The notes under the pieces were generated by a model. It saw nothing but the letters and a program-made list of their open reading frames with translations. It did no database searches and had not been told where the DNA came from. The position numbers and the translations under genes are program-made. From Minisyncoccota bacterium (GTDB lineage Bacteria > Patescibacteriota > Minisyncoccia > UBA6257 > 1-14-0-10-40-38), in NCBI GenBank assembly GCA_020052135.1, contig JAGVPS010000028.1, positions 1 through 34,055 of the forward strand: DNA of 34,055 bases, given 5' to 3'. Positions 5,809-32,759 of the stretch are shown here, piece by piece. Numbering within the stretch: the first letter of the stretch is position 1; every line of letters begins with the position of its first letter.

Positions 5809-7442
5809 TAAAAGACACAAAAGCGAGAGCAATGATCCTTATCTGTATTCTCGCCGTTGCGCTCGGATTACGCCTCTGGGGTCTGGGAGTCCAGGAATTT
5901 GTCGGAGACGAGGGCGCGTATGCGTTCCGTTCCGCGCTCTACCTGGATTACCTCGGCACCAACTTTCAAACACAGCCGATTGATTGGTACGCCAGTACAG
6001 AACTTCCCTCATGGACACAACTCTCTTTTCACGATCATCCTCCGCTCGGGTTTCTTATACGGCATTGGTTTTTTAGTATTTTTGGCGCGACTCCGTTCGT
6101 GGCGCGACTCCCGGGCGTACTTCTCGGCGTGTGTTCAATCGGATTGCTCTATGGAATTTTGAGAAGAAGTCCGATTTTTAAAGACGCGTCTGAATCGTAT
6201 GCATTGTGGGGCGCTCTTCTCGCATCAGTAAGCGGAGCCATGATCTGGAGCTCGCGCGCGGTTCTCCTTGAGCCGTTTGCATTGTTCTTTATTCTTGCAT
6301 CGCTCTATGCCTTTACCCGTTTTACCGAGGACCGTCGGTGGTGGTGGGCGTTAGGCATTGCCTTGGGTTTATCGCTCATCACCAAATACACCACCATTAT
6401 TCTTCTTCCGGTTTTTCTCGTCTATCTCCTGGTATATTATCGGCGGATATTCCGCGATGTACGGCTCTACGGAGCCCTACTCCTCGCACTCCTCTTTCTT
6501 TCTCCGGTTATATCCTACAATTTCAATCTCTATAAAGAGCGAGGGCATTTTGATTTACAGCTCGCCTATGTATTTCAACAAGCGACTCCAGAGTGGACTG
6601 GTCTTCTTGGAAAAAGCGAAGCTCCATTCCGCGAGATTGGAGGACGGACGCGAGATCTCTATGGCGTGAGCGAAATTATAATCGGACTTGCGGGTCTCGG
6701 TGTCATAGCGTTGTTTTGGAAGCGCGCGAATAAGAAAACCGTTGTGCTATGGGCGGCGTATATAATCGGATGTTTTGGTCTCTTCGTGTTGGTCGGAGTG
6801 GCGGAACGATTCATCGTACTCCTTGTTCCCGCAATGGTCGCGCTCGGAGCCGTTCTCTTCGGGGAGATGTTTGATCGAAGTGGAAAAGGCATAAAAAAAT
6901 ACATTGCTCCTGCCCTCCTCATACTTATAGTGTTTAGTGGATCAACTCGATATCTCGCGAATGTCTATAACACAGGAGTTATCGAGCTTGATCAGTATCT
7001 CAGCAAAGAATTTCAGGATACATCATCTGTCGCGCTTCCAAACACGGAGAATCCTCATCTAAACGGCATTATCAAAAAAAACGCGGAGGCGCACTCATCA
7101 GGAAGGCCAACTCGGACGCTCATCGTGTATAGTGATACGCTCGCGCTTCCTTCGCGGTTGTGGCTTTTTGATCGAAGGCTTCTCTTGGAGGGTATTCCGG
7201 TATTTTATGTAGAGGGATTTTCAGAAGCCGTGAAAGCAAACCCCGCAGTTTTTCAAGGGTTTTCAGCGTATTTTATGCAGGCCACGGAATACGGATTTTT
7301 AAATCCATTCAAGAAGGGTAATCAAGCAGGAAATGAATTTGAAAAAACGCTTGTATCGCAAGGGATAGAACCGGTGCGCAGTATATACGGACACGACGGA
7401 CTTCCTATGTTTCGCGTATATACATTTACTATCGAATCTTAA
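5805..7442 (+). CDS. PMT/ArnT-family (GT39/GT83-like, GT-C fold) membrane glycosyltransferase
   Basis: N-terminal TM followed by LRLWGLGVQEFVGDEGAYAFRSALY (the DE motif loop typical of PMT_2/ArnT-like enzymes). Many TM segments and a C-terminal extracytoplasmic domain. ATGA start overlap with the upstream gene. Confidence 0.8.
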   Translation: MIKDTKARAMILICILAVALGLRLWGLGVQEFVGDEGAYAFRSALYLDYLGTNFQTQPIDWYASTELPSWTQLSFHDHPPLGFLIRHWFFSIFGATPFVARLPGVLLGVCSIGLLYGILRRSPIFKDASESYALWGALLASVSGAMIWSSRAVLLEPFALFFILASLYAFTRFTEDRRWWWALGIALGLSLITKYTTIILLPVFLVYLLVYYRRIFRDVRLYGALLLALLFLSPVISYNFNLYKERGHFDLQLAYVFQQATPEWTGLLGKSEAPFREIGGRTRDLYGVSEIIIGLAGLGVIALFWKRANKKTVVLWAAYIIGCFGLFVLVGVAERFIVLLVPAMVALGAVLFGEMFDRSGKGIKKYIAPALLILIVFSGSTRYLANVYNTGVIELDQYLSKEFQDTSSVALPNTENPHLNGIIKKNAEAHSSGRPTRTLIVYSDTLALPSRLWLFDRRLLLEGIPVFYVEGFSEAVKANPAVFQGFSAYFMQATEYGFLNPFKKGNQAGNEFEKTLVSQGIEPVRSIYGHDGLPMFRVYTFTIES

Positions 7443-8635
7443 CAAGACGCGCGGTACAATGCTTCGGTTTTCTGTATCATCAAGGAAAGGCTAAACTCTG
7501 TTTGCAAGCGATGCCGGGCTTCTTTTCCAAAGATTTGAGCTCTATAGTGATCTCGCATGAGTTCTTGAAAAGCCCGGGAAAGGCGTTCGGGGTTTTTTTG
7601 AGGAACTACCATGCCCGTTGCGTCGTGCATGACGACTTCAGGCATTCCGCCCGCGTCAGTAACGACTGCTGGGATTCCCGCGGCACAGGATTCAAGAAGC
7701 GCATAGGGCAGGCCTTCTTTTACAGAGGTGAGCGTAAAAAGGTCGAATGCTTTCAGAAATTTTGCATCATCTCCAGTAGGAGGTATCAGAAAAAACCTAT
7801 CTTGTAATTGCCCGCCTGCCGGCGAGGCAGGGTAATTGGTAATTAGTAATTGGAGTTTTGAGTATTCCGGTCCTGCGCCAATGATAAAGAAATACGCATT
7901 TGGAACGAGCGCCGCTGCTTGAATGAGAGTGGCGTAATCTTTTTCTTTGGTTAGTCGGCCGATGGAGCCGATCCAGGGTTTAGCAACTAGTAATTGCCCG
8001 CCTGCCGGCGAGGCAGGGTAATTAGTAATTGGTAATTTTGAAATAATTGCCTTTCGCGCGGAAACCTTATCCAGGAAAGTAAGGTTTTGATAATCAATCC
8101 CATTGTGGATGGTGGTTAACTTTTTAGAAGGCGCTATGGCATAGCGGAGCGCAAGTTTGTAGTCGTATTCTGATACGCAAATAATGTAGTTCTGAAAATA
8201 CGCAGCCATACGATGAAGGCGTATATAAACAAAACGGGCAACAGGAGAAAGTGCGTTTGATGGATTAAAAACCCAGCCATGGGCGGTGAAGATTACTTTT
8301 GCAGGTAAATGGTAAATGGTAAATGGTAAATGATTGTAAAGAAATGCGGCAAACGAGCCGATTACTCCTGCCTTAGAGCTGTTCAGGTGGATAATATCCG
8401 GGTGCTCTTTTCGATATACGCTCATGAGTGAAAAAAGCGCTCTCCAGTCATTTGCGAAGAGCGCGTACCAGGCGATTTTATTTGAAAGCGAGGGAATATC
8501 AACGCCTCCCCGTATGACGCGAATGTCAAAAGAGGCGCGGTCAAGATGTGAGGCGAGATCTGCTACATACTTTTGAGCGCCTCCTACGTCATCTTTGGTG
8601 ATGACATAGAGCACCTTTTTACGTTGCTCATCCAT
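7439..8635 (-). CDS. GT4-family (GT-B fold) glycosyltransferase carrying three in-frame repeat insertions
   Basis: N-terminal VLYVITKDDVGGAQKY and C-terminal EGLPYALLESCAAGIPAVVTDAGGMPEVV (E-x7-E region) are GT4 hallmarks. The stop overlaps the convergent 5805-7442 gene by 4 nt. Confidence 0.85.
   Translation of the reverse strand: MDEQRKKVLYVITKDDVGGAQKYVADLASHLDRASFDIRVIRGGVDIPSLSNKIAWYALFANDWRALFSLMSVYRKEHPDIIHLNSSKAGVIGSFAAFLYNHLPFTIYHLPAKVIFTAHGWVFNPSNALSPVARFVYIRLHRMAAYFQNYIICVSEYDYKLALRYAIAPSKKLTTIHNGIDYQNLTFLDKVSARKAIISKLPITNYPASPAGGQLLVAKPWIGSIGRLTKEKDYATLIQAAALVPNAYFFIIGAGPEYSKLQLLITNYPASPAGGQLQDRFFLIPPTGDDAKFLKAFDLFTLTSVKEGLPYALLESCAAGIPAVVTDAGGMPEVVMHDATGMVVPQKNPERLSRAFQELMRDHYRAQIFGKEARHRLQTEFSLSLMIQKTEALYRASC
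7804..7853 (-). repeat. Hairpin-plus-heptamer cassette, copy 1 (in frame, encodes ..LLITNYPASPAGGQLQ..)
   Basis: The plus strand reads GTAATTG-CCCGCCTGCCGGCGAGGCAGG-GTAATTG-GTAATTA-GTAATTG-G. It is an imperfect GC palindrome flanked by GTAATTN heptamers. Confidence 0.9.
7990..8037 (-). repeat. Hairpin-plus-heptamer cassette, copy 2 (in frame, encodes ..LPITNYPASPAGGQLL..)
   Basis: The plus strand reads GTAATTG-CCCGCCTGCCGGCGAGGCAGG-GTAATTA-GTAATTG-GTAATTT. It is a direct repeat of copy 1, exactly 186 nt away. Confidence 0.9.
8304..8331 (-). repeat. Perfect tandem heptamer (GGTAAAT)x4 inside the GT4 coding sequence
   Basis: Four uninterrupted units at 8304-8310, 8311-8317, 8318-8324 and 8325-8331. 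They encode HLPFTIYHLP on the minus strand. Confidence 0.95.
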
Positions 8636-8672: not shown

Positions 8673-10955
8673 ATGGAACGAGAAAGTAATCCCATTGCAG
8701 TCTTTTCATTGGCATACCAGCCATTTGTGGGTGGCGCGGAAATAGCAATCCACGAAATCATACAGCGAATGCCGAAAGAGCAGTTCGTTTGTTTTACGCG
8801 TCGATTTGATGCGTCGTGGCCGAAAAGAGAAACCGAGGGAAATGAGACGATTGTGCGCCTTGGGCGTCCCGCGAGAGAGTATTATGGCCATGCGCTCTTA
8901 AAACTTTTCTATGTATTTCTTGCCTATCGTGCGGCGACGCGGATGCATCGGGAAGAGCCTTTTAAGGCAATCTGGGCGATCATGGCTTCGTATGGCGGCA
9001 TGGCAGCGCTTCTTTTTAAACTTCGGCATCCAAAGATCCCGCTCTTGCTTACGCTCCAAGAAGGTGATTCTGAAACGCATATCTTGAAGCGCGTGGGTAT
9101 TTTCTATCCGATATGGCGACTCATTTTTTTGCGCGCAGATCGCATACAAGTCATTAGCAGCTTCCTTAAAAGTTTCGCCGAGCGACAAGGAGCAATATGC
9201 CCGATAACCGTTATTCCAAACGGCGTTGATTTAAGTAAATTCAAACCAGAAATGGCGGTTGGAAGATTGCTTCATAAAATGTTTACCATTATTACAACAT
9301 CGAGACTTGTCCGGAAAAATGGAATCGATATTCTTGTGAAAGCGATAGTAGTGCTGAAGAAAGAGGGGAAAAAAGTAAGACTTCTTATTATAGGTGGTGG
9401 ACCCGAAGAAGAAGCACTCAAGATACTTGTAAAAGAGCTCGACGTTCAAAACGAAGTAGAGTTTATCGGACAAGTTGCGTCAGATGCAATTCCAGGATAT
9501 TTAAAAAAAACAGCTGACGTTGTGTTTGTTAGACCTTCTCGATCTGAGGGGCTGGGGAGTTCTTTTCTTGAAGCTATGGCAGCAGGAATTCCTATTATTG
9601 GTACTCCTGTTGGAGGTATCTCAGATTTTCTTTTTGATCGAGAAACTGGGCTTTTTGTTCGAGAAGAAGATCCAATTGATCTAGCAAAAAAGATTAGAGA
9701 GCTCATAGATGATTCCCAACTCTGGGATCGTCTTCGAAAAAAAGGTCTCAACCTTATCCAGCGGTATTCATGGGATCAAATCGCCGAAGAGATAGAAGGG
9801 ATATTTCTAGATCTCAAAGTGATCAAGCGCGTAGTTATTGCGACCGGCATCTTCCCCCCGGATATCGGCGGTTCGGCAAGCTATGCCGCAGTGCTCACCG
9901 AGAAATTGCCTGCCTATGGTTGCGCGCCTCTTGTGGTTACCTATGGAAAAGCGCGCCCATCGAAAATCATCTCCGTATCGCGCGGGCTTCCGAAGCCACT
10001 ACGGCATGGGCTCTTTTTTCTGAAAGTGTATATGAGCGCATTGCATGCGGATGTGGTGCTTTCTGCCGATGCTTCGTTTGGCGCAGGCTTTTTTGCGATG
10101 CTCGCCGCGCGTGCGGCGGGAGTACGCGCACTTGTTCGAGTCACGGGAGACTATGCCTGGGAGCAGGGATTGCAGAGATTCAATGTGCGCGATCTCATCG
10201 ATGGATTCCAAAAAAAGCGATATGGATTTTTTGTGGAAGCGTTGCGCTTCTTTCAAAAGGCAACGCTTCGCCTTGCGGATCAGGTGATCGTGCCAAGCGC
10301 ATATCTTGGTGCGCTCGCACGCGGGTGGGGCATCAGGGAGAAAAAAATACAGATTATCTATAATGCTGTCGAGCCGCCCCCTCCGCTTTCGTATGAAAAG
10401 GCGAGACACGCGCTTGGCATAACGGGAGATGTCATTGTTTCTGCTGGAAGACTGGTTCCGTGGAAGGGATTTGAGATGCTTATTCGCTCCCTTCCGGAAA
10501 TCAAAAAAGATTTTCCCCGGCTTACTGTTTTCATCGTTGGTGACGGACCCGAGTGCGCCCATTTAGAAAAGCTGTCGAAAAGCCTCGGAGTTAGCGGCAC
10601 AGTCCGCTTTCTTGGTATCCTGTCGAAGGATATGCTACAGGTTTATCTGCAAGCGGCAGATCTTTTTGTGTTGAATACTTCGTACGAGGGATTTTCCCAT
10701 CAATTGATAGAAGCCATGCTCGTGGGTATTCCCGTCCTCTCTACGGAAGTAGGGGGCAACAGGGAACTGGCTGAACTTGGGAAAAATATCACGCTCATAC
10801 CTTATAACGACGCGGAGGCATTCCAGAAAAATATAGTAGCCCTGCTTAACAGCAAGGCGGAAAAACCTCGGCATTATATAGATAGAAGCCTTGCTGACCG
10901 GGTTTCCGTGTCGAGAATGATACAGGAGCTTGTACGCCTCATGCGTCCTTTATGA
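8673..10955 (+). CDS. Fused double GT4 glycosyltransferase (two complete GT-B modules)
   Basis: There are two E-x7-E regions: SEGLGSSFLEAMAAGIPIIGTPVGGISDF and YEGFSHQLIEAMLVGIPVLSTEVGGNREL. The second module starts at KRVVIATGIFPPDIGGSASY (about nt 9824). Confidence 0.85.
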   Translation: MERESNPIAVFSLAYQPFVGGAEIAIHEIIQRMPKEQFVCFTRRFDASWPKRETEGNETIVRLGRPAREYYGHALLKLFYVFLAYRAATRMHREEPFKAIWAIMASYGGMAALLFKLRHPKIPLLLTLQEGDSETHILKRVGIFYPIWRLIFLRADRIQVISSFLKSFAERQGAICPITVIPNGVDLSKFKPEMAVGRLLHKMFTIITTSRLVRKNGIDILVKAIVVLKKEGKKVRLLIIGGGPEEEALKILVKELDVQNEVEFIGQVASDAIPGYLKKTADVVFVRPSRSEGLGSSFLEAMAAGIPIIGTPVGGISDFLFDRETGLFVREEDPIDLAKKIRELIDDSQLWDRLRKKGLNLIQRYSWDQIAEEIEGIFLDLKVIKRVVIATGIFPPDIGGSASYAAVLTEKLPAYGCAPLVVTYGKARPSKIISVSRGLPKPLRHGLFFLKVYMSALHADVVLSADASFGAGFFAMLAARAAGVRALVRVTGDYAWEQGLQRFNVRDLIDGFQKKRYGFFVEALRFFQKATLRLADQVIVPSAYLGALARGWGIREKKIQIIYNAVEPPPPLSYEKARHALGITGDVIVSAGRLVPWKGFEMLIRSLPEIKKDFPRLTVFIVGDGPECAHLEKLSKSLGVSGTVRFLGILSKDMLQVYLQAADLFVLNTSYEGFSHQLIEAMLVGIPVLSTEVGGNRELAELGKNITLIPYNDAEAFQKNIVALLNSKAEKPRHYIDRSLADRVSVSRMIQELVRLMRPL

Positions 10956-12061
10956 AAATCCTTATGATTTCAACCGATGCGCGCATATGCGATGCAGAGT
11001 CTTCAGTCGCTCGGCGCATGCAGGAATACGGCAATCTCTGCGATGAGTTACACATTGTTGTTTTTTGTAAAAAAAATGTGATATATCCTCGACCAGAACG
11101 AATTCGTATTGAAAAACAGACGTGGGTATATCCTACGTGGTCTCGTTACAAGTGGTGTTTTATATGGGATGGGTTAAAAACCGCCAAAACTATTTTGAAT
11201 AAAGAAGAAGCATGGGTCATTACCACTCAAGATCCGTTCGAATCAGGAGTCGTGGGATTCTTGCTTGTGCGGAACTTTCCCGAGGCTCGACTTCAAGTAC
11301 AAGCACACACTGATTTTTTAAGCCCCTTCTTTCGTGCAGAGTCTCTTAAAAATAGATTTCGTGGCACACTCGCCCGTTTTTCTATACGACGTGCCGATAG
11401 TATTCGGGTAGTGAGCGAACGAATTAAACAATCAATCATAATAAAGTACGGCGTGCCAAGCTCACAGATTGTGACGTTGCCTATTTTCGTAGACGTGAAA
11501 AAAATAAGAGAAGTGCCGCCCACACTCGACCTTCGAAAAAAATATGCGGGGAAAAGCCCCATCTTTCTCATAGCGTCGCGCCTTACCAAAGAAAAGAATA
11601 TTCCGCTTGCCCTTCGGGCGTTCCGGGAGGTGTGTTTAGCGAATCCAAACGCGTTACTCGTGATTGTGGGGGAGGGACCAGAGAAGTCAAAAATCCAATT
11701 ACTGATTACCCGCTACCAATTACAGAAGAATGTAATTCTTGAGCCATGGACGGACGATCTTTCATCCCACTATAAAACAGCAGATTGTTTTTTGCTCACC
11801 TCAAACTATGAGGGGTATGGCAGAACCATCGTTGAGGCGCTTGCCGCGGGCTGTCCGGTTATATCAAGCGACGTAGGTGTCGCGCGTGAGGCCATAACTC
11901 CTGAAAGCGGAAGCATATTCACGGTGGGGAATAGCCACGCGCTTGCACTGCTCCTTAAAGAGGTTATGCAAGGAAAGAAGTTTCAGCCAACCCTCCCCAA
12001 AAAATTTGATATATCAAAAGAGGAATACCTACAGCAGTGGCAACGCATGATGAGCAAATAG
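10952..12061 (+). CDS. GT4-family glycosyltransferase
   Basis: ATGA overlap with the upstream gene. LIASRLTKEKN, VGEGPE and YEGYGRTIVEALAAGCPVISSDVGVAREAI are GT4 C-terminal domain motifs. Confidence 0.85.
   Translation: MKILMISTDARICDAESSVARRMQEYGNLCDELHIVVFCKKNVIYPRPERIRIEKQTWVYPTWSRYKWCFIWDGLKTAKTILNKEEAWVITTQDPFESGVVGFLLVRNFPEARLQVQAHTDFLSPFFRAESLKNRFRGTLARFSIRRADSIRVVSERIKQSIIIKYGVPSSQIVTLPIFVDVKKIREVPPTLDLRKKYAGKSPIFLIASRLTKEKNIPLALRAFREVCLANPNALLVIVGEGPEKSKIQLLITRYQLQKNVILEPWTDDLSSHYKTADCFLLTSNYEGYGRTIVEALAAGCPVISSDVGVAREAITPESGSIFTVGNSHALALLLKEVMQGKKFQPTLPKKFDISKEEYLQQWQRMMSK
11696..11723 (+). repeat. Four-unit heptamer tract (CAATTAC TGATTAC CCGCTAC CAATTAC) at the position homologous to the cassette, without the GC hairpin
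   Basis: Period-7 xxxTTAC/xxxCTAC units read directly from the sequence. They encode QLLITRYQLQ. Confidence 0.7.
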
Positions 12062-12820: not shown

Positions 12821-12880
12821 AACTCCCCGTGCTCACGCCCGTGGTATCTAAGTTTCACCCCGCCATCGGCGGGGTTTATT
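12818..12880 (+). terminator. Double-hairpin terminator module, copy L (begins with the TGA stop of the GT2 gene)
   Basis: Outer stem is TGAAACT (12818-12824) / AGTTTCA (12851-12857), enclosing an inner hairpin with a TCAC loop. Then comes CCCCGCC-ATC-GGCGGGG (12858-12874) followed by TTTATT. It matches the reverse complement of 17116-17175 at 52 of 60 positions. Confidence 0.75.
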
Positions 12881-17112: not shown

Positions 17113-17175
17113 ATAAAACCCCGCCGTTGGCGGGGTGAAGCTTAGATACCACGGCCGTGAGGCCGTAGAGCTTCA
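17113..17175 (-). terminator. Double-hairpin terminator module, copy R (begins with the TGA stop of the oxidoreductase gene)
   Basis: The minus strand reads TGAAGCT-ct-ACGGCC-TCAC-GGCCGT-ggtatcta-AGCTTCA-CCCCGCC-AAC-GGCGGGG-TTTTAT. It has the same architecture as 12818-12880. Confidence 0.75.
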
Positions 17176-18099
17176 TAAAGATTTTGAAATAGTTTCAAGA
17201 TGTGCAGTTACGGTAGCGCCAAACGCAACATCGGTGAGCGGAGAGAGACGATTCTCAATGCAGGCGCGAAAATGCTCCAACTCGTTTTTGAGCGGTTCCG
17301 TAGTAAACGAAGGAATGGCGATGGGTGTTGGAGAGGCAATCGTAAGCGTATTCGGGACAACTCCTGTATCGAGTATAATTTTTGTTGTGTCTCCCAGACA
17401 CACGAATTTCCTTACTTTTTCTGGACCGAGCCAGGAAGTGGTGATCGTGAGAAGCGGTCCGTGATCAAACGCAACGGTCGCCGAAACAAAGTCCTCGTGA
17501 GAACCATTTTGTATACGAAATTTTTTTCCTGAAACGCTTCTAATTTTCCCCGGATTAAACAGATAGTTAAAAACAGAAAGCGGATGCGGCGCCGCGTCCC
17601 AAAAACAATTGATGTCTGTGCGTGGAGGGCTTACCAAGTGTTCGCTCATGACATGGGTGATTGTGCCGAGGCGTCCCGCGTCAAGTTCAGTTTTTAAAAA
17701 TCGTATCGCATCATTATAGATGTATTGGTACCCAACCATGCATATTTTTCCCGATCGGGATGCTGTACGAGCAAGGAGTCGCGCTTCCTTCGTACTCATC
17801 ACCATTGGTTTTTCAACGAGCACATGTTTGCCCGCGCGGAGCGCGGCATGCGCAAGCGCAAAGTGGGTGTGCGCCGGGGTCGCGATAATAACCGCATCAA
17901 TGTCCGGAGACGCGAAAACTTCGCTAGGGTTTAGGGTATAGCGAATAGGAGAAGAGATAAGACTTTTCAGTTCTGGATGTTCACGAGTGGTTACGACTGA
18001 AAGGAGGGCGAACCCCTCGAGCGATTGCAAGAGTCGGAGATAGTTTTTTCCAAAGTTACCAACACCAAAAAGTGCGCACCTAAGCAGTGGTTGGCTCAT
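17173..18099 (-). CDS. Gfo/Idh/MocA-family NAD(P)-dependent oxidoreductase (likely sugar-nucleotide reductase/dehydrogenase)
   Basis: N-terminal FGVGNFGKNY Rossmann motif and the VLVEKPM (EKP) motif. Confidence 0.85.
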   Translation of the reverse strand: MSQPLLRCALFGVGNFGKNYLRLLQSLEGFALLSVVTTREHPELKSLISSPIRYTLNPSEVFASPDIDAVIIATPAHTHFALAHAALRAGKHVLVEKPMVMSTKEARLLARTASRSGKICMVGYQYIYNDAIRFLKTELDAGRLGTITHVMSEHLVSPPRTDINCFWDAAPHPLSVFNYLFNPGKIRSVSGKKFRIQNGSHEDFVSATVAFDHGPLLTITTSWLGPEKVRKFVCLGDTTKIILDTGVVPNTLTIASPTPIAIPSFTTEPLKNELEHFRACIENRLSPLTDVAFGATVTAHLETISKSL

Positions 18100-27044: not shown

Positions 27045-28178
27045 ATGAGTAAACCAAAACTCTGCTATGTGATACCGGAATATAACAGTGAAGCGCATAC
27101 GCATTTTGCCTATCTTACCCCCTTTATTCGTGCTTTGTCCGAAACATTCGATATTTGGCTCGTAGTTGAGCGGGGCACAGCGCCGCCGGATATGGGAACG
27201 GTGCGGGTATCTGTGGCGCGCATGCGCATCCCACTTTTGCGACTCATAAACATAAAATTCTTGCTGTTTTGGGCACGTGTCTCTGGGTATAAAGATTTTT
27301 ACGTACACTACTCTTTCTTTTCGGCATATGTCGCTTCGGTCATTGCGCGCGTAACGGGTGGGCGGGTGTTCTATTGGAATTGCGGTGAGCCATGGAAATA
27401 TAAACGGAATTTTTTCCGCGAAGCGTTTGAGCGAACGGTGTACTCGCTCGTGACGTATCTTGTGACGGGCACGGAAGGAATGAAGCAGGCATACGCGAAG
27501 CACTATGGGTTGTCGCTCGAAAAAATAAAGGTAATGCCGAATTGGGTGGATATCTCAAATATAAAATCTCAAATCGCAAATCTTAGCACTAAAGATATAA
27601 AAAAAGAACTCAATATTTCCAAAGATACAAAAATCATCTTGTTTGCGCACCGGCTTTCAAAGCGAAAGGGTGCGCACTATCTACCGGAAATTATAAAGGC
27701 TTTACAAAATGAGAATGTTGTTCTTCTCATCGCTGGTGATGGTCCTGAAAAAGAAAATATCCAATTACAAATTACCAATTACCCTGCCTCGCCGGCAGGC
27801 GGGCAATTACAAAATCGCGTGCAATTTTTAGGGTGGGTGCCGCAAAAAGATACGGCGCAGTATTTTGCTATCGCCGATGTATTTATTCTACCCTCCGAAG
27901 AGGAGGGGTTCCCGCACGTGATATTGGAATCAATGGCATATGGCGTACCCTCTGTCGCGTTTAACGTAGGGGGAGTGAAAGAAATCATTTTGCCAGAGCT
28001 TTTAACGTATGTTGTTGCTCCGGGCGACACGGCTGAATTTATTAGAAAAGTAAATACGCTTTTAGATATATCTTTAGAAAAAAGGAATTCACTGCAGGCG
28101 CGTATGAACGCTTGGATACGAAAATATGATCTTTTATCTTCAGTATCTATTTTTAAAAAAATAGCCCAGATAGTATAG
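27045..28178 (+). CDS. GT4-family glycosyltransferase carrying one in-frame cassette copy
   Basis: ILFAHRLSKRKG, AGDGPE and EEEGFPHVILESMAYGVPSVAFNVGGVKEII. Confidence 0.85.
   Translation: MSKPKLCYVIPEYNSEAHTHFAYLTPFIRALSETFDIWLVVERGTAPPDMGTVRVSVARMRIPLLRLINIKFLLFWARVSGYKDFYVHYSFFSAYVASVIARVTGGRVFYWNCGEPWKYKRNFFREAFERTVYSLVTYLVTGTEGMKQAYAKHYGLSLEKIKVMPNWVDISNIKSQIANLSTKDIKKELNISKDTKIILFAHRLSKRKGAHYLPEIIKALQNENVVLLIAGDGPEKENIQLQITNYPASPAGGQLQNRVQFLGWVPQKDTAQYFAIADVFILPSEEEGFPHVILESMAYGVPSVAFNVGGVKEIILPELLTYVVAPGDTAEFIRKVNTLLDISLEKRNSLQARMNAWIRKYDLLSSVSIFKKIAQIV
27761..27810 (+). repeat. Hairpin-plus-heptamer cassette, copy 3 (in frame, encodes ..QLQITNYPASPAGGQLQ..)
   Basis: CCAATTACAAATTACCAATTACCCTGCCTCGCCGGCAGGCGGGCAATTAC equals the reverse complement of 7804-7853 at 49 of 50 positions. 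Confidence 0.9.
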
Positions 28179-32693: not shown

Positions 32694-32705
32694 ATTTTAC
32701 CTATT

Positions 32706-32751
32706 AGAAAATCACGTCAATTGAACGATCGTCCAATTGACGTGATTTTCT
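32706..32751. terminator. Perfect 18-bp-stem hairpin between convergent genes (bidirectional terminator candidate)
   Basis: AGAAAATCACGTCAATTG (32706-32723) pairs with CAATTGACGTGATTTTCT (32734-32751). The 10-nt loop AACGATCGTC is itself partly palindromic. Confidence 0.75.
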
Positions 32752-32759
32752 ATGTTTTC

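Follow-up and report, generated by a model that had tools for sequence, protein, structure and literature searches.

A 21-nt dispersed hairpin element in two glycosyltransferase genes of a Minisyncoccota bacterium and in many other phyla

Introduction

To our knowledge, the only mobile DNA as small as 21 nt described so far comes from one cyanobacterial family, and how it moves has been an open question since 2008. In that year, Elhai and co-workers (Elhai et al., 2008) reportedly described the small dispersed repeats (SDRs) SDR1–SDR8 of Nostoc punctiforme and its relatives. The SDRs are said to be 21–27 nt long, dispersed and precisely inserted, often in tandem heptamer or other small repeats, and to be nested in themselves. 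Their hairpin is reportedly backed by compensatory changes, and the mechanism was said to be not known. We know of no report of frequent in-frame occupancy of protein-coding genes by SDRs. In this paper, we analyse a 34,055-nt stretch of DNA from a Minisyncoccota bacterium (contig JAGVPS010000028.1 of assembly GCA_020052135.1; the whole stretch is called the window). Two of its genes for family-4 glycosyltransferases (GT4), GT4a and GT4c, carry the 21-nt sequence CCTGCCTCGCCGGCAGGCGGG, called E here, which is translated as PASPAGG. According to PMC5861425, SDRs have been reported only in Nostocaceae; the description of SDRs used here also draws on the citing papers PMC4390886 and PMC3116915.

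SDRs appear to be the closest known analogue of E, likened by description and not by consensus sequence. Like SDRs, E occurs as dispersed identical copies (the window has three, and a genome scan at least 133 sites within at least 120 stretches), lies in heptamer arrays and has nested or adjacent copies. Unlike SDRs, it is found with identical sequence in Patescibacteria, Bacteroidota, Omnitrophota, Acidobacteriota and other phyla. We conclude with high confidence that E is an inserted and dispersed element. It is 21 nt long and non-coding, is predicted to form a hairpin, resembles SDRs in type and is spread across many phyla.

The sites of E in the window are flanked by heptamer arrays of the STRR/TAACTGA type; STRRs are the short tandemly repeated heptamers of cyanobacteria. 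TAACTGA heptamer arrays were described in Beggiatoaceae, Cyanobacteria and Bacteroidetes, with 'no mechanism evident' (MacGregor, 2015; PMC4679880). Their patchy distribution among phyla parallels that of E. STRR/TAACTGA arrays are mostly intergenic, whereas those in the window are translated in frame as three-unit blocks, and E is the sequence that interrupts them.

Results

E is located at three positions in the window, with an exact match in each case. Copies A (7811–7831, minus strand) and B (7997–8017, minus strand) lie in GT4a (7439–8635, minus strand; 398 aa) and correspond to residues 269–275 and 207–213, respectively. Copy C (27783–27803, plus strand) lies in frame in GT4c (27045–28178, plus strand; 377 aa; assigned by Pfam and orthologs). 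A sequence-only reading of the window had described a cassette of a hairpin and heptamers, inserted twice in frame in one GT4 gene. The 34-nt core of this cassette, AATTACCCTGCCTCGCCGGCAGGCGGGCAATTAC, is present exactly at 7804–7837 (minus) and 7990–8023 (minus), with no match in 100 dinucleotide-preserving shuffles. A distance of 186 nt separates the two copies, and within the GT4a open reading frame (ORF) each gives the peptide ITNYPASPAGGQL. The period-7 arrays on both sides were detected by TRF, and to this extent the reading was correct. Its count of two copies is extended by a third exact core at 27777–27810 (plus) in GT4c, in the same frame as copy A. Copies A and C occupy the same structural site, after the GxGPE motif; copy A follows the helix behind this motif, and copy B is in the inter-domain linker. 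GT4 enzymes are characterized by the GT-B fold, Glyco_transf_4 and Glycos_transf_1 domains and a C-terminal E-x7-E region. For GT4a, Pfam gave Glycos_transf_1 (E=5e-29) and Glyco_transf_4 (E=1.3e-19). The Pfam domains, the two Rossmann-like halves of the model described below and the alignment to BshA (2jjm) place the host genes in GT4.

For comparison, about 120 homologs of GT4a and about 120 of GT4c were collected, all from metagenome-assembled genomes (MAGs) of Patescibacteria/Parcubacteria, many of them named Harrisonbacteria; these homologs indicate the lineage of the window. The GT4c ortholog P0166 shows a precise empty site, ATTACTAATTAC/CAATTACAAGAC, i.e. AATTAC/CAATTACAA (the slash marks the junction), which is the window sequence minus exactly 21 nt. 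The nucleotides are ATT ACT AAT TAC/CAA TTA CAA GAC in P0166 and ATT ACC AAT TAC-CCTGCCTCGCCGGCAGGCGGG-CAA TTA CAA AAT in the window. The filled and empty sites are therefore exactly 21 nt apart, with no target duplication. P0128, P0137 and P0146 are also empty at the copy C site. PASPAGG was found only in the window proteins when about 100 orthologs of each GT4 family were compared, and copy B is without a counterpart in the orthologs. When GT4a is aligned with the solved structure of BshA (2jjm), a 7-residue gap is located precisely at PASPAGG of copy A. The inserted unit is exactly the 21-nt E and not the hairpin-plus-heptamer cassette, and the extra material relative to the orthologs and the solved GT4 structures is 7 residues instead of the 13 proposed previously.

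The CAATTAC heptamers are a pre-existing target and not part of the insert, because both P0166 and the paralogous GT4 gene at 10952–12061 hold heptamers without the 21-nt GC part. The unoccupied counterpart in this paralog (11696–11723, plus) is CAATTAC TGATTAC CCGCTAC CAATTAC, encoding QLLITRYQL with no 21-nt insert. On the 5' side of copy A, the array CAATTAC TAATTAC CAATTAC (7832–7852, minus; TRF period 7) encodes the helix end QLLITNY. The corresponding arrays, located by TRF and sequence, are AAATTAC CAATTAC TAATTAC for copy B (8018–8038, minus) and CAATTAC AAATTAC CAATTAC for copy C (27762–27782, plus). On the 3' side, each copy is followed by CAATTAC (7804–7810, minus; 7990–7996, minus; 27804–27810, plus), and in copy B the degenerate unit TAGTTGC comes next. 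In the alignment of the three copies with their flanks, the identity stops at the heptamer arrays and the flanking codons differ. As E also recurs elsewhere, the copies are not a plain segmental duplication. In other genomes, the register of E is set by the arrays, for example TTTCCAA/E/TTTCCAA in locus L097; elsewhere, E sits between quite different heptamers or without any heptamers. The proposal of a very small repeat that has spread into coding DNA with the reading frame preserved is thus supported, whereas the heptamers are removed from the unit by P0166 and the paralog.

The GT4a orthologs carry unrelated heptamer-coded peptides at three places, namely the N-domain loop, the linker and the helix after GxGPE; one such array, (AAACTAC)n, is translated as KLQTTNYKLQT. 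The ortholog P0007 (locus L122, gene 513–1769; 55% protein identity) has the GT4a array letter for letter, CTCCAATTACTAATTACCAATTAC...CAATTACAA, with a different GC-rich in-frame insert of 72 nt at the same junction as copy A. As the same array has received a different insert, the arrays are regarded as hot spots for several tiny hairpin inserts. The 72-nt insert opens with a 24-nt hairpin, GTCCGCCAATCGGCGGAGCCGGGA, between the 7-nt direct repeats TCCCGAC. In a Patescibacteria MAG (L059, 4857–4886), an AACTTTT heptamer array is broken by a 30-nt hairpin pair, TCCGCCAGAGGCGGA and CCAGCCTTTGGCTGG, which represents another tiny insert family in heptamer arrays. A search for interrupted heptamer arrays gave too few cases beyond E to generalise about other insert families. 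The window also has period-7 arrays without E, both in frame: (GGTAAAT)x4.1 at 8304–8332 in the N-domain loop of GT4a (LPFTIYHLP), and (ATCTCAA)x4.6 at 27552–27583 in the inter-domain linker of GT4c.

The structure of GT4a was predicted by AlphaFold2 with 30 homologs (mean predicted local distance difference test score, pLDDT, of 90). Around copy A, the heptamer-encoded helix 258–267 is retained in the model, and residues 268–276 (YPASPAGGQ) are predicted to form a loop before the strand 281–284. The earlier suggestion that this copy replaces the helix is therefore incorrect; in the model, PASPAGG forms an additional loop at the C-terminal end of the helix. Copy B is located in the segment 204–213 with pLDDT below 50, which suggests a disordered inter-domain linker ahead of the strand 221–225. 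Both inserts in GT4a are placed in loops of a confident model. E contains no TAA, TAG or TGA on either strand, i.e. it is stop-free in six frames. As E is 3 x 7 nt and stop-free, the reading frame and the heptamer phase are both kept. The host GT4 genes most probably remain functional.

Many of the sites of E elsewhere keep the reading frame of a housekeeping gene. In QueA, E is an insertion relative to PDB 1yy3, and the other hosts include a copper-type (CopA-type) P-ATPase, TopA (topoisomerase I), AroB and TrmH. In the cultured Aureibaculum sp. 2210JD6-5 (L014, 3511–4338), E is translated as TRLPARQ in a TrmH-family RNA methyltransferase. Two related proteins of the compared set (P0241–P0250) have the diverged inserts AKLSARQ and TGLQVGQ at the same site, and the insert is missing in A. 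algae, A. conchae and A. marinum despite protein identities of about 77–84%. The TrmH site therefore differs between congeners in presence or absence, and decay of the insert is visible.

E was searched against GTDB with one genome per species (596 Gb). It is letter-identical in at least 120 genome stretches from at least 15 phyla, and the matches listed contain 133 sites (the listed sites, to which the site counts for E below refer). At 45% GC, about 0.05 matches would be expected by chance in the whole database; the GC content is below 50% in 85 of the 120 listed loci. The listed carriers include many classes of the tiny-genome Patescibacteria and, in addition, Bacteroidota, Omnitrophota, Acidobacteriota, Elusimicrobia, Gammaproteobacteria, Bdellovibrionales, Planctomycetia, Nitrospirae, Armatimonadota, a Baltobacteraceae MAG, an Ignavibacteria-type MAG and one Bathyarchaeota MAG. 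No cyanobacterium is among the matches listed. Four carriers are cultured Bacteroidota: Aureibaculum sp. 2210JD6-5, Agriterribacter humi YJ03, Namhaeicola litoreus CCUG 61485 and Lutimonas vermicola IMCC1616. About 100 of the 133 listed sites have flanks unrelated to those of any other site. Among the papers available for full-text search, none contained E or the sister sequence described below.

The preference for heptamer arrays was examined by comparing the 7 nt before E with the 7 nt after it, with at least six of seven matching. Such a direct repeat spans E in 11 of the 133 listed sites, compared with 12 of 6498 controls (about 45-fold enrichment), and spans the sister family in 16 of 97 sites. 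The heptamers at E are mutually unrelated (TTTCCAA, AGTCCAA, TCACCAA, CTCCGAC, TACGAAT and CGCTATA, besides the octamer CCCCTCAA). Target-site duplication was considered and rejected, since the heptamer repeat is present at only about 8–16% of the sites and the empty site of P0166 shows none. E is also found at the tips of unrelated hairpins (L045 and L048), nested in E-like hairpins (L041, L050 and L055), as tandem or partial copies (L030, L057, L026 and L095) and inside a larger Acidobacteriota repeat. The base following E (position +1) is a pyrimidine in 90% of the listed sites and in 95% of the sister-family sites. An inverted repeat flanks E in only 3 of 131 listed sites.

With respect to genes, an ORF of at least 150 codons spans E in 82 of the 133 listed sites (62%), compared with 82% of random positions. 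The PASPAGG frame is the commonest (34 of the 82 ORF-spanned sites). Among the listed matches, E lies in either orientation relative to genes and in each of the six frames, and some copies are intergenic.

Two further contexts were observed. In L004, L090 and L120 (Candidatus Taenariivivens baikalensis MAG), a larger repeat that opens with GTCATTGCGAG...CGCGGCAATC encloses E. We take this enclosing type of hairpin repeat to be widespread in MAGs of several phyla. In L010 (7456–7875), E occupies the D-loop of a sequence that partially duplicates the 5' half of tRNA-Arg(CCG). The intact tRNA-Arg and a small GIY-YIG-like ORF follow about 300 nt downstream. The arrangement resembles a small element that integrated at the tRNA, E lying in the remnant.

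The minimum-energy fold of E, for DNA and RNA alike, is GCC-T-CGCC-GGCA-GGCG-GG+Y, with a z score of about -2 against shuffles. In this fold, a T is bulged out of a 7-bp stem, the loop is GGCA and the +1 pyrimidine closes the structure. The CCTGCC/GGCAGG stem of the sequence-only reading is not the minimum-energy fold. No variation supports this stem, and it was rejected as the relevant fold; it may matter as a target, as E is found in loops of such hairpins.

Metagenomes were scanned for sister families with a base other than C at position 8 and any base at position 19. The 128 copies obtained comprise T8/A19 (98 copies), G8/A19 (20), A8/A19 (4), T8/G19 (2), A8/T19 (2), G8/T19 (1) and T8/C19 (1). 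The sister family T8A19, CCTGCCTTGCCGGCAGGCAGG, thus accounts for 98 of the 128 non-C8 copies (metagenome loci L127–L246). Its sequence forms 10-bp palindrome arms with one extra T. Between E and the sister family, the paired change from C8:G19 to T8:A19 preserves the pair 8–19 (98 copies of T8A19 against 2 of T8G19). This pair is standard in 248 of 280 copies, with five pair types. The comparison with the hairpin of SDRs is limited, since the 20 G8A19 copies break the pair and the other pairs are invariant. The structural evidence for the hairpin is moderate.

A Pfam scan of the 20 larger ORFs of the window identified genes for glycosylation and sugar nucleotides. An intergenic repeat of about 55–61 nt, 87% identical, is present at 12826–12880 (plus) and 17116–17176 (minus), at the ends of two convergent gene blocks. 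It consists of the small hairpin TATCTAAGYTTCA and a CCCCGCC-loop-GGCGGGG hairpin followed by T's, and is terminator-like. At 32705–32752, between two genes, there is a 48-nt near-perfect palindrome without a spacer, the 24-nt arms of which are 96% complementary.

Discussion

The empty sites, the unrelated flanks and the distribution among phyla suggest that E is probably an inserted, dispersed element that is mobilised in trans. E is far too small to encode anything, and therefore its copying machinery must be supplied in trans. In this Parcubacteria genome, the insertion of E took place without target duplication at a unit boundary of pre-existing CAATTAC arrays. The arrays encode what are probably tolerant surface segments of the two GT4 enzymes, to which E adds a flexible PASPAGG loop. 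HUH single-strand transposases act on the ends of IS200/IS605 elements and on repetitive extragenic palindromic (REP) sequences, and insert without duplication. By analogy, the target of E might be DNA that loops out as a single strand, such as slipped tandem repeats and the tips of palindromes, its own included, and insertion would usually occur just 5' of a pyrimidine. The folded strand might then be recognised by a trans-acting single-strand DNA enzyme in the HUH style (IS200/IS605 TnpA or RAYT). Such a specific single-strand, HUH-like mechanism is possible, if rather doubtful. Gene conversion via the common heptamers could also account for the spread of the three copies inside this genome.

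Several observations weigh against mobilisation in trans, or against details of it. The three window copies share their heptamer flanks, and transposition within the genome is indistinguishable from gene conversion. No recurrent ORF family was found near E by an all-against-all BLAST comparison of 2404 ORFs from about 4 kb around 121 loci, and the Pfam scan of the 20 larger window ORFs revealed no transposase. In 7.3 Gb of plasmids and 2.3 Gb of phages, E is missing and BLAST gave partial chance matches only, and the viral contigs of IMG/VR contain one match; neither a plasmid nor a phage carrier for the route between phyla was thus found. For the sister family, BLAST against the plasmids also gave partial chance matches only. 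The 34-mer gave no match in the metagenome collection. A few matches in GC-rich genomes, e.g. Sorangium, may be due to chance. The orientation relative to GC skew differs between the families (65 against 33 for T8A19 at the 1-kb scale, which is significant, and 66 against 67 for E). As to the hairpin, the G8A19 subfamily breaks the pair 8–19, and two other folds are nearly as well kept because most positions never vary.

Among the other small repeats, REP sequences and their doublets, REPINs, resemble E in structure. REPs are imperfect palindromes of 20–40 nt, dispersed, with a bulged base in the stem, and are mobilised by RAYT (TnpA-REP); for REPs and E alike, a single-stranded DNA mechanism without target duplication is presumed. 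REPs are sometimes inside genes, and a conserved tetranucleotide, GTAG or CGTC, borders their palindrome on one side as the defining mark (PMC3733652). In contrast, neither strand of E has GTAG or CGTC, its flanks are not conserved, no flanking RAYT was seen in the ORF comparison above and no doublet was noted. REP systems are also marked by a RAYT gene that the repeats flank and by very high copy numbers between genes; E differs in its frequency in long ORFs and in its preference for heptamer arrays and loop tips. REP families are usually specific to a species or genus, whereas E is letter-identical across phyla. With the Rickettsia palindromic elements (RPEs), to which the sequence-only reading had likened the repeat, E shares the in-frame insertion into functional protein genes, tolerated in surface regions. 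The likeness ends with size and lineage, since RPEs are 100–150 bp long and known from Rickettsia only. Miniature inverted-repeat transposable elements, which have a target-site duplication and terminal inverted repeats that match an insertion sequence, differ from E, which has no target-site duplication, no general flanking direct repeat and hardly any inverted-repeat flanks. The GC clusters and 'byp' elements of yeast mitochondria share with E a short, GC-rich and palindromic form and mobile insertion into AT-richer DNA, coding sequence included. Lang and co-workers (PNAS, Lang et al. 2014) reportedly described the byps as being skipped by the ribosome. These elements belong to eukaryotic organelles, and the byps are bypassed; E is in frame and stop-free, and needs no bypass.

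The best of the alternatives is a purely local history, in which one 21-nt insertion or de novo segment was copied among the GT4 genes via the CAATTAC heptamers, with no transposition. The flanks AATTAC/E/CAATTAC are the same in all three copies (34 identical nt), the left-hand arrays give about 21 nt of near-identity, and copies A and C occupy corresponding positions in paralogs that are 83% identical there over 87 nt. However, copy B is at a non-homologous position of the protein, the divergence outside the arrays is that of ordinary paralogs, and a local history does not account for the presence of E, between unrelated flanks, in at least 120 further stretches of other genomes. We therefore regard a purely local history as improbable. 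Gene conversion or recombination may still be how E spread inside this genome.

Another explanation is that E is a functional cis-element, such as a protein-binding palindrome or an RNA hairpin with a role in regulation or stability, which is kept by selection and incidentally translated; an embedded DNA or RNA signal was also the second proposal of the sequence-only reading. The letter-perfect conservation agrees with this, as do the paired change that keeps the hairpin, the fold that is stabler than shuffles and the palindrome GCCGGC within E. On the other hand, copies of E occur in both orientations and all six reading frames; some are intergenic, one lies in a partial (pseudo) tRNA copy and others are nested in E. 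Its position relative to gene starts and ends is not fixed. The orthologs function without E, and Rfam gave no match for 7700–8150 (E up to 10; two chance-level matches only). A cis-element is thus very unlikely.

The heptamer arrays could instead be phase-variable contingency loci that change by 7-nt slippage, the GC hairpin being part of the switch, for instance if it stalled replication or prevented slippage. Phase variation is classically known from glycosyltransferase genes, period-7 arrays are present at three places in GT4a and two in GT4c, and the orthologs have different heptamer arrays at the same places. Against this, the arrays are short (3–4 units) and imperfect, all the genes are in frame with no frameshifted alleles among about 240 homologs, and E is mostly outside such genes. 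A contingency switch is just as poorly supported as the cis-element and is held to be highly improbable. Finally, an assembly or library artefact, suggested by the length of exactly 21 nt (the default smallest k-mer of common assemblers) and by the preponderance of MAGs among the matches, can practically be dismissed, because isolate genomes, megabase-scale contigs and chromosome-level assemblies also carry E, orthologs show diverged variants and a decaying copy, and the inserts always have flanking sequence on either side and sit in frame within intact genes.

As to the window, the 'cassette' is an insertion into a pre-existing repeat, and the two GT4 genes are probably intact. The question of how such small DNA moves can be tested in culturable strains of Aureibaculum, Namhaeicola, Lutimonas and Agriterribacter. 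The unexplained heptamer arrays are tied to a defined inserting sequence, and E may serve as a marker for horizontal exchange between very distant lineages. Insertion of E is a route by which proteins gain 7-residue loops without a frameshift, which bears on annotation and on the evolution of MAG proteins. In a wider and more speculative picture, which we consider unlikely, E and the sister families would be an unrecognised pan-bacterial class of 21-nt selfish hairpins that use only the shared host replication and repair machinery, target looped-out single strands and create or maintain heptamer arrays. If this were true, the patchy heptamer arrays across phyla would have an explanation, and proteins in general would be able to acquire 7-residue loop insertions from such hairpins.

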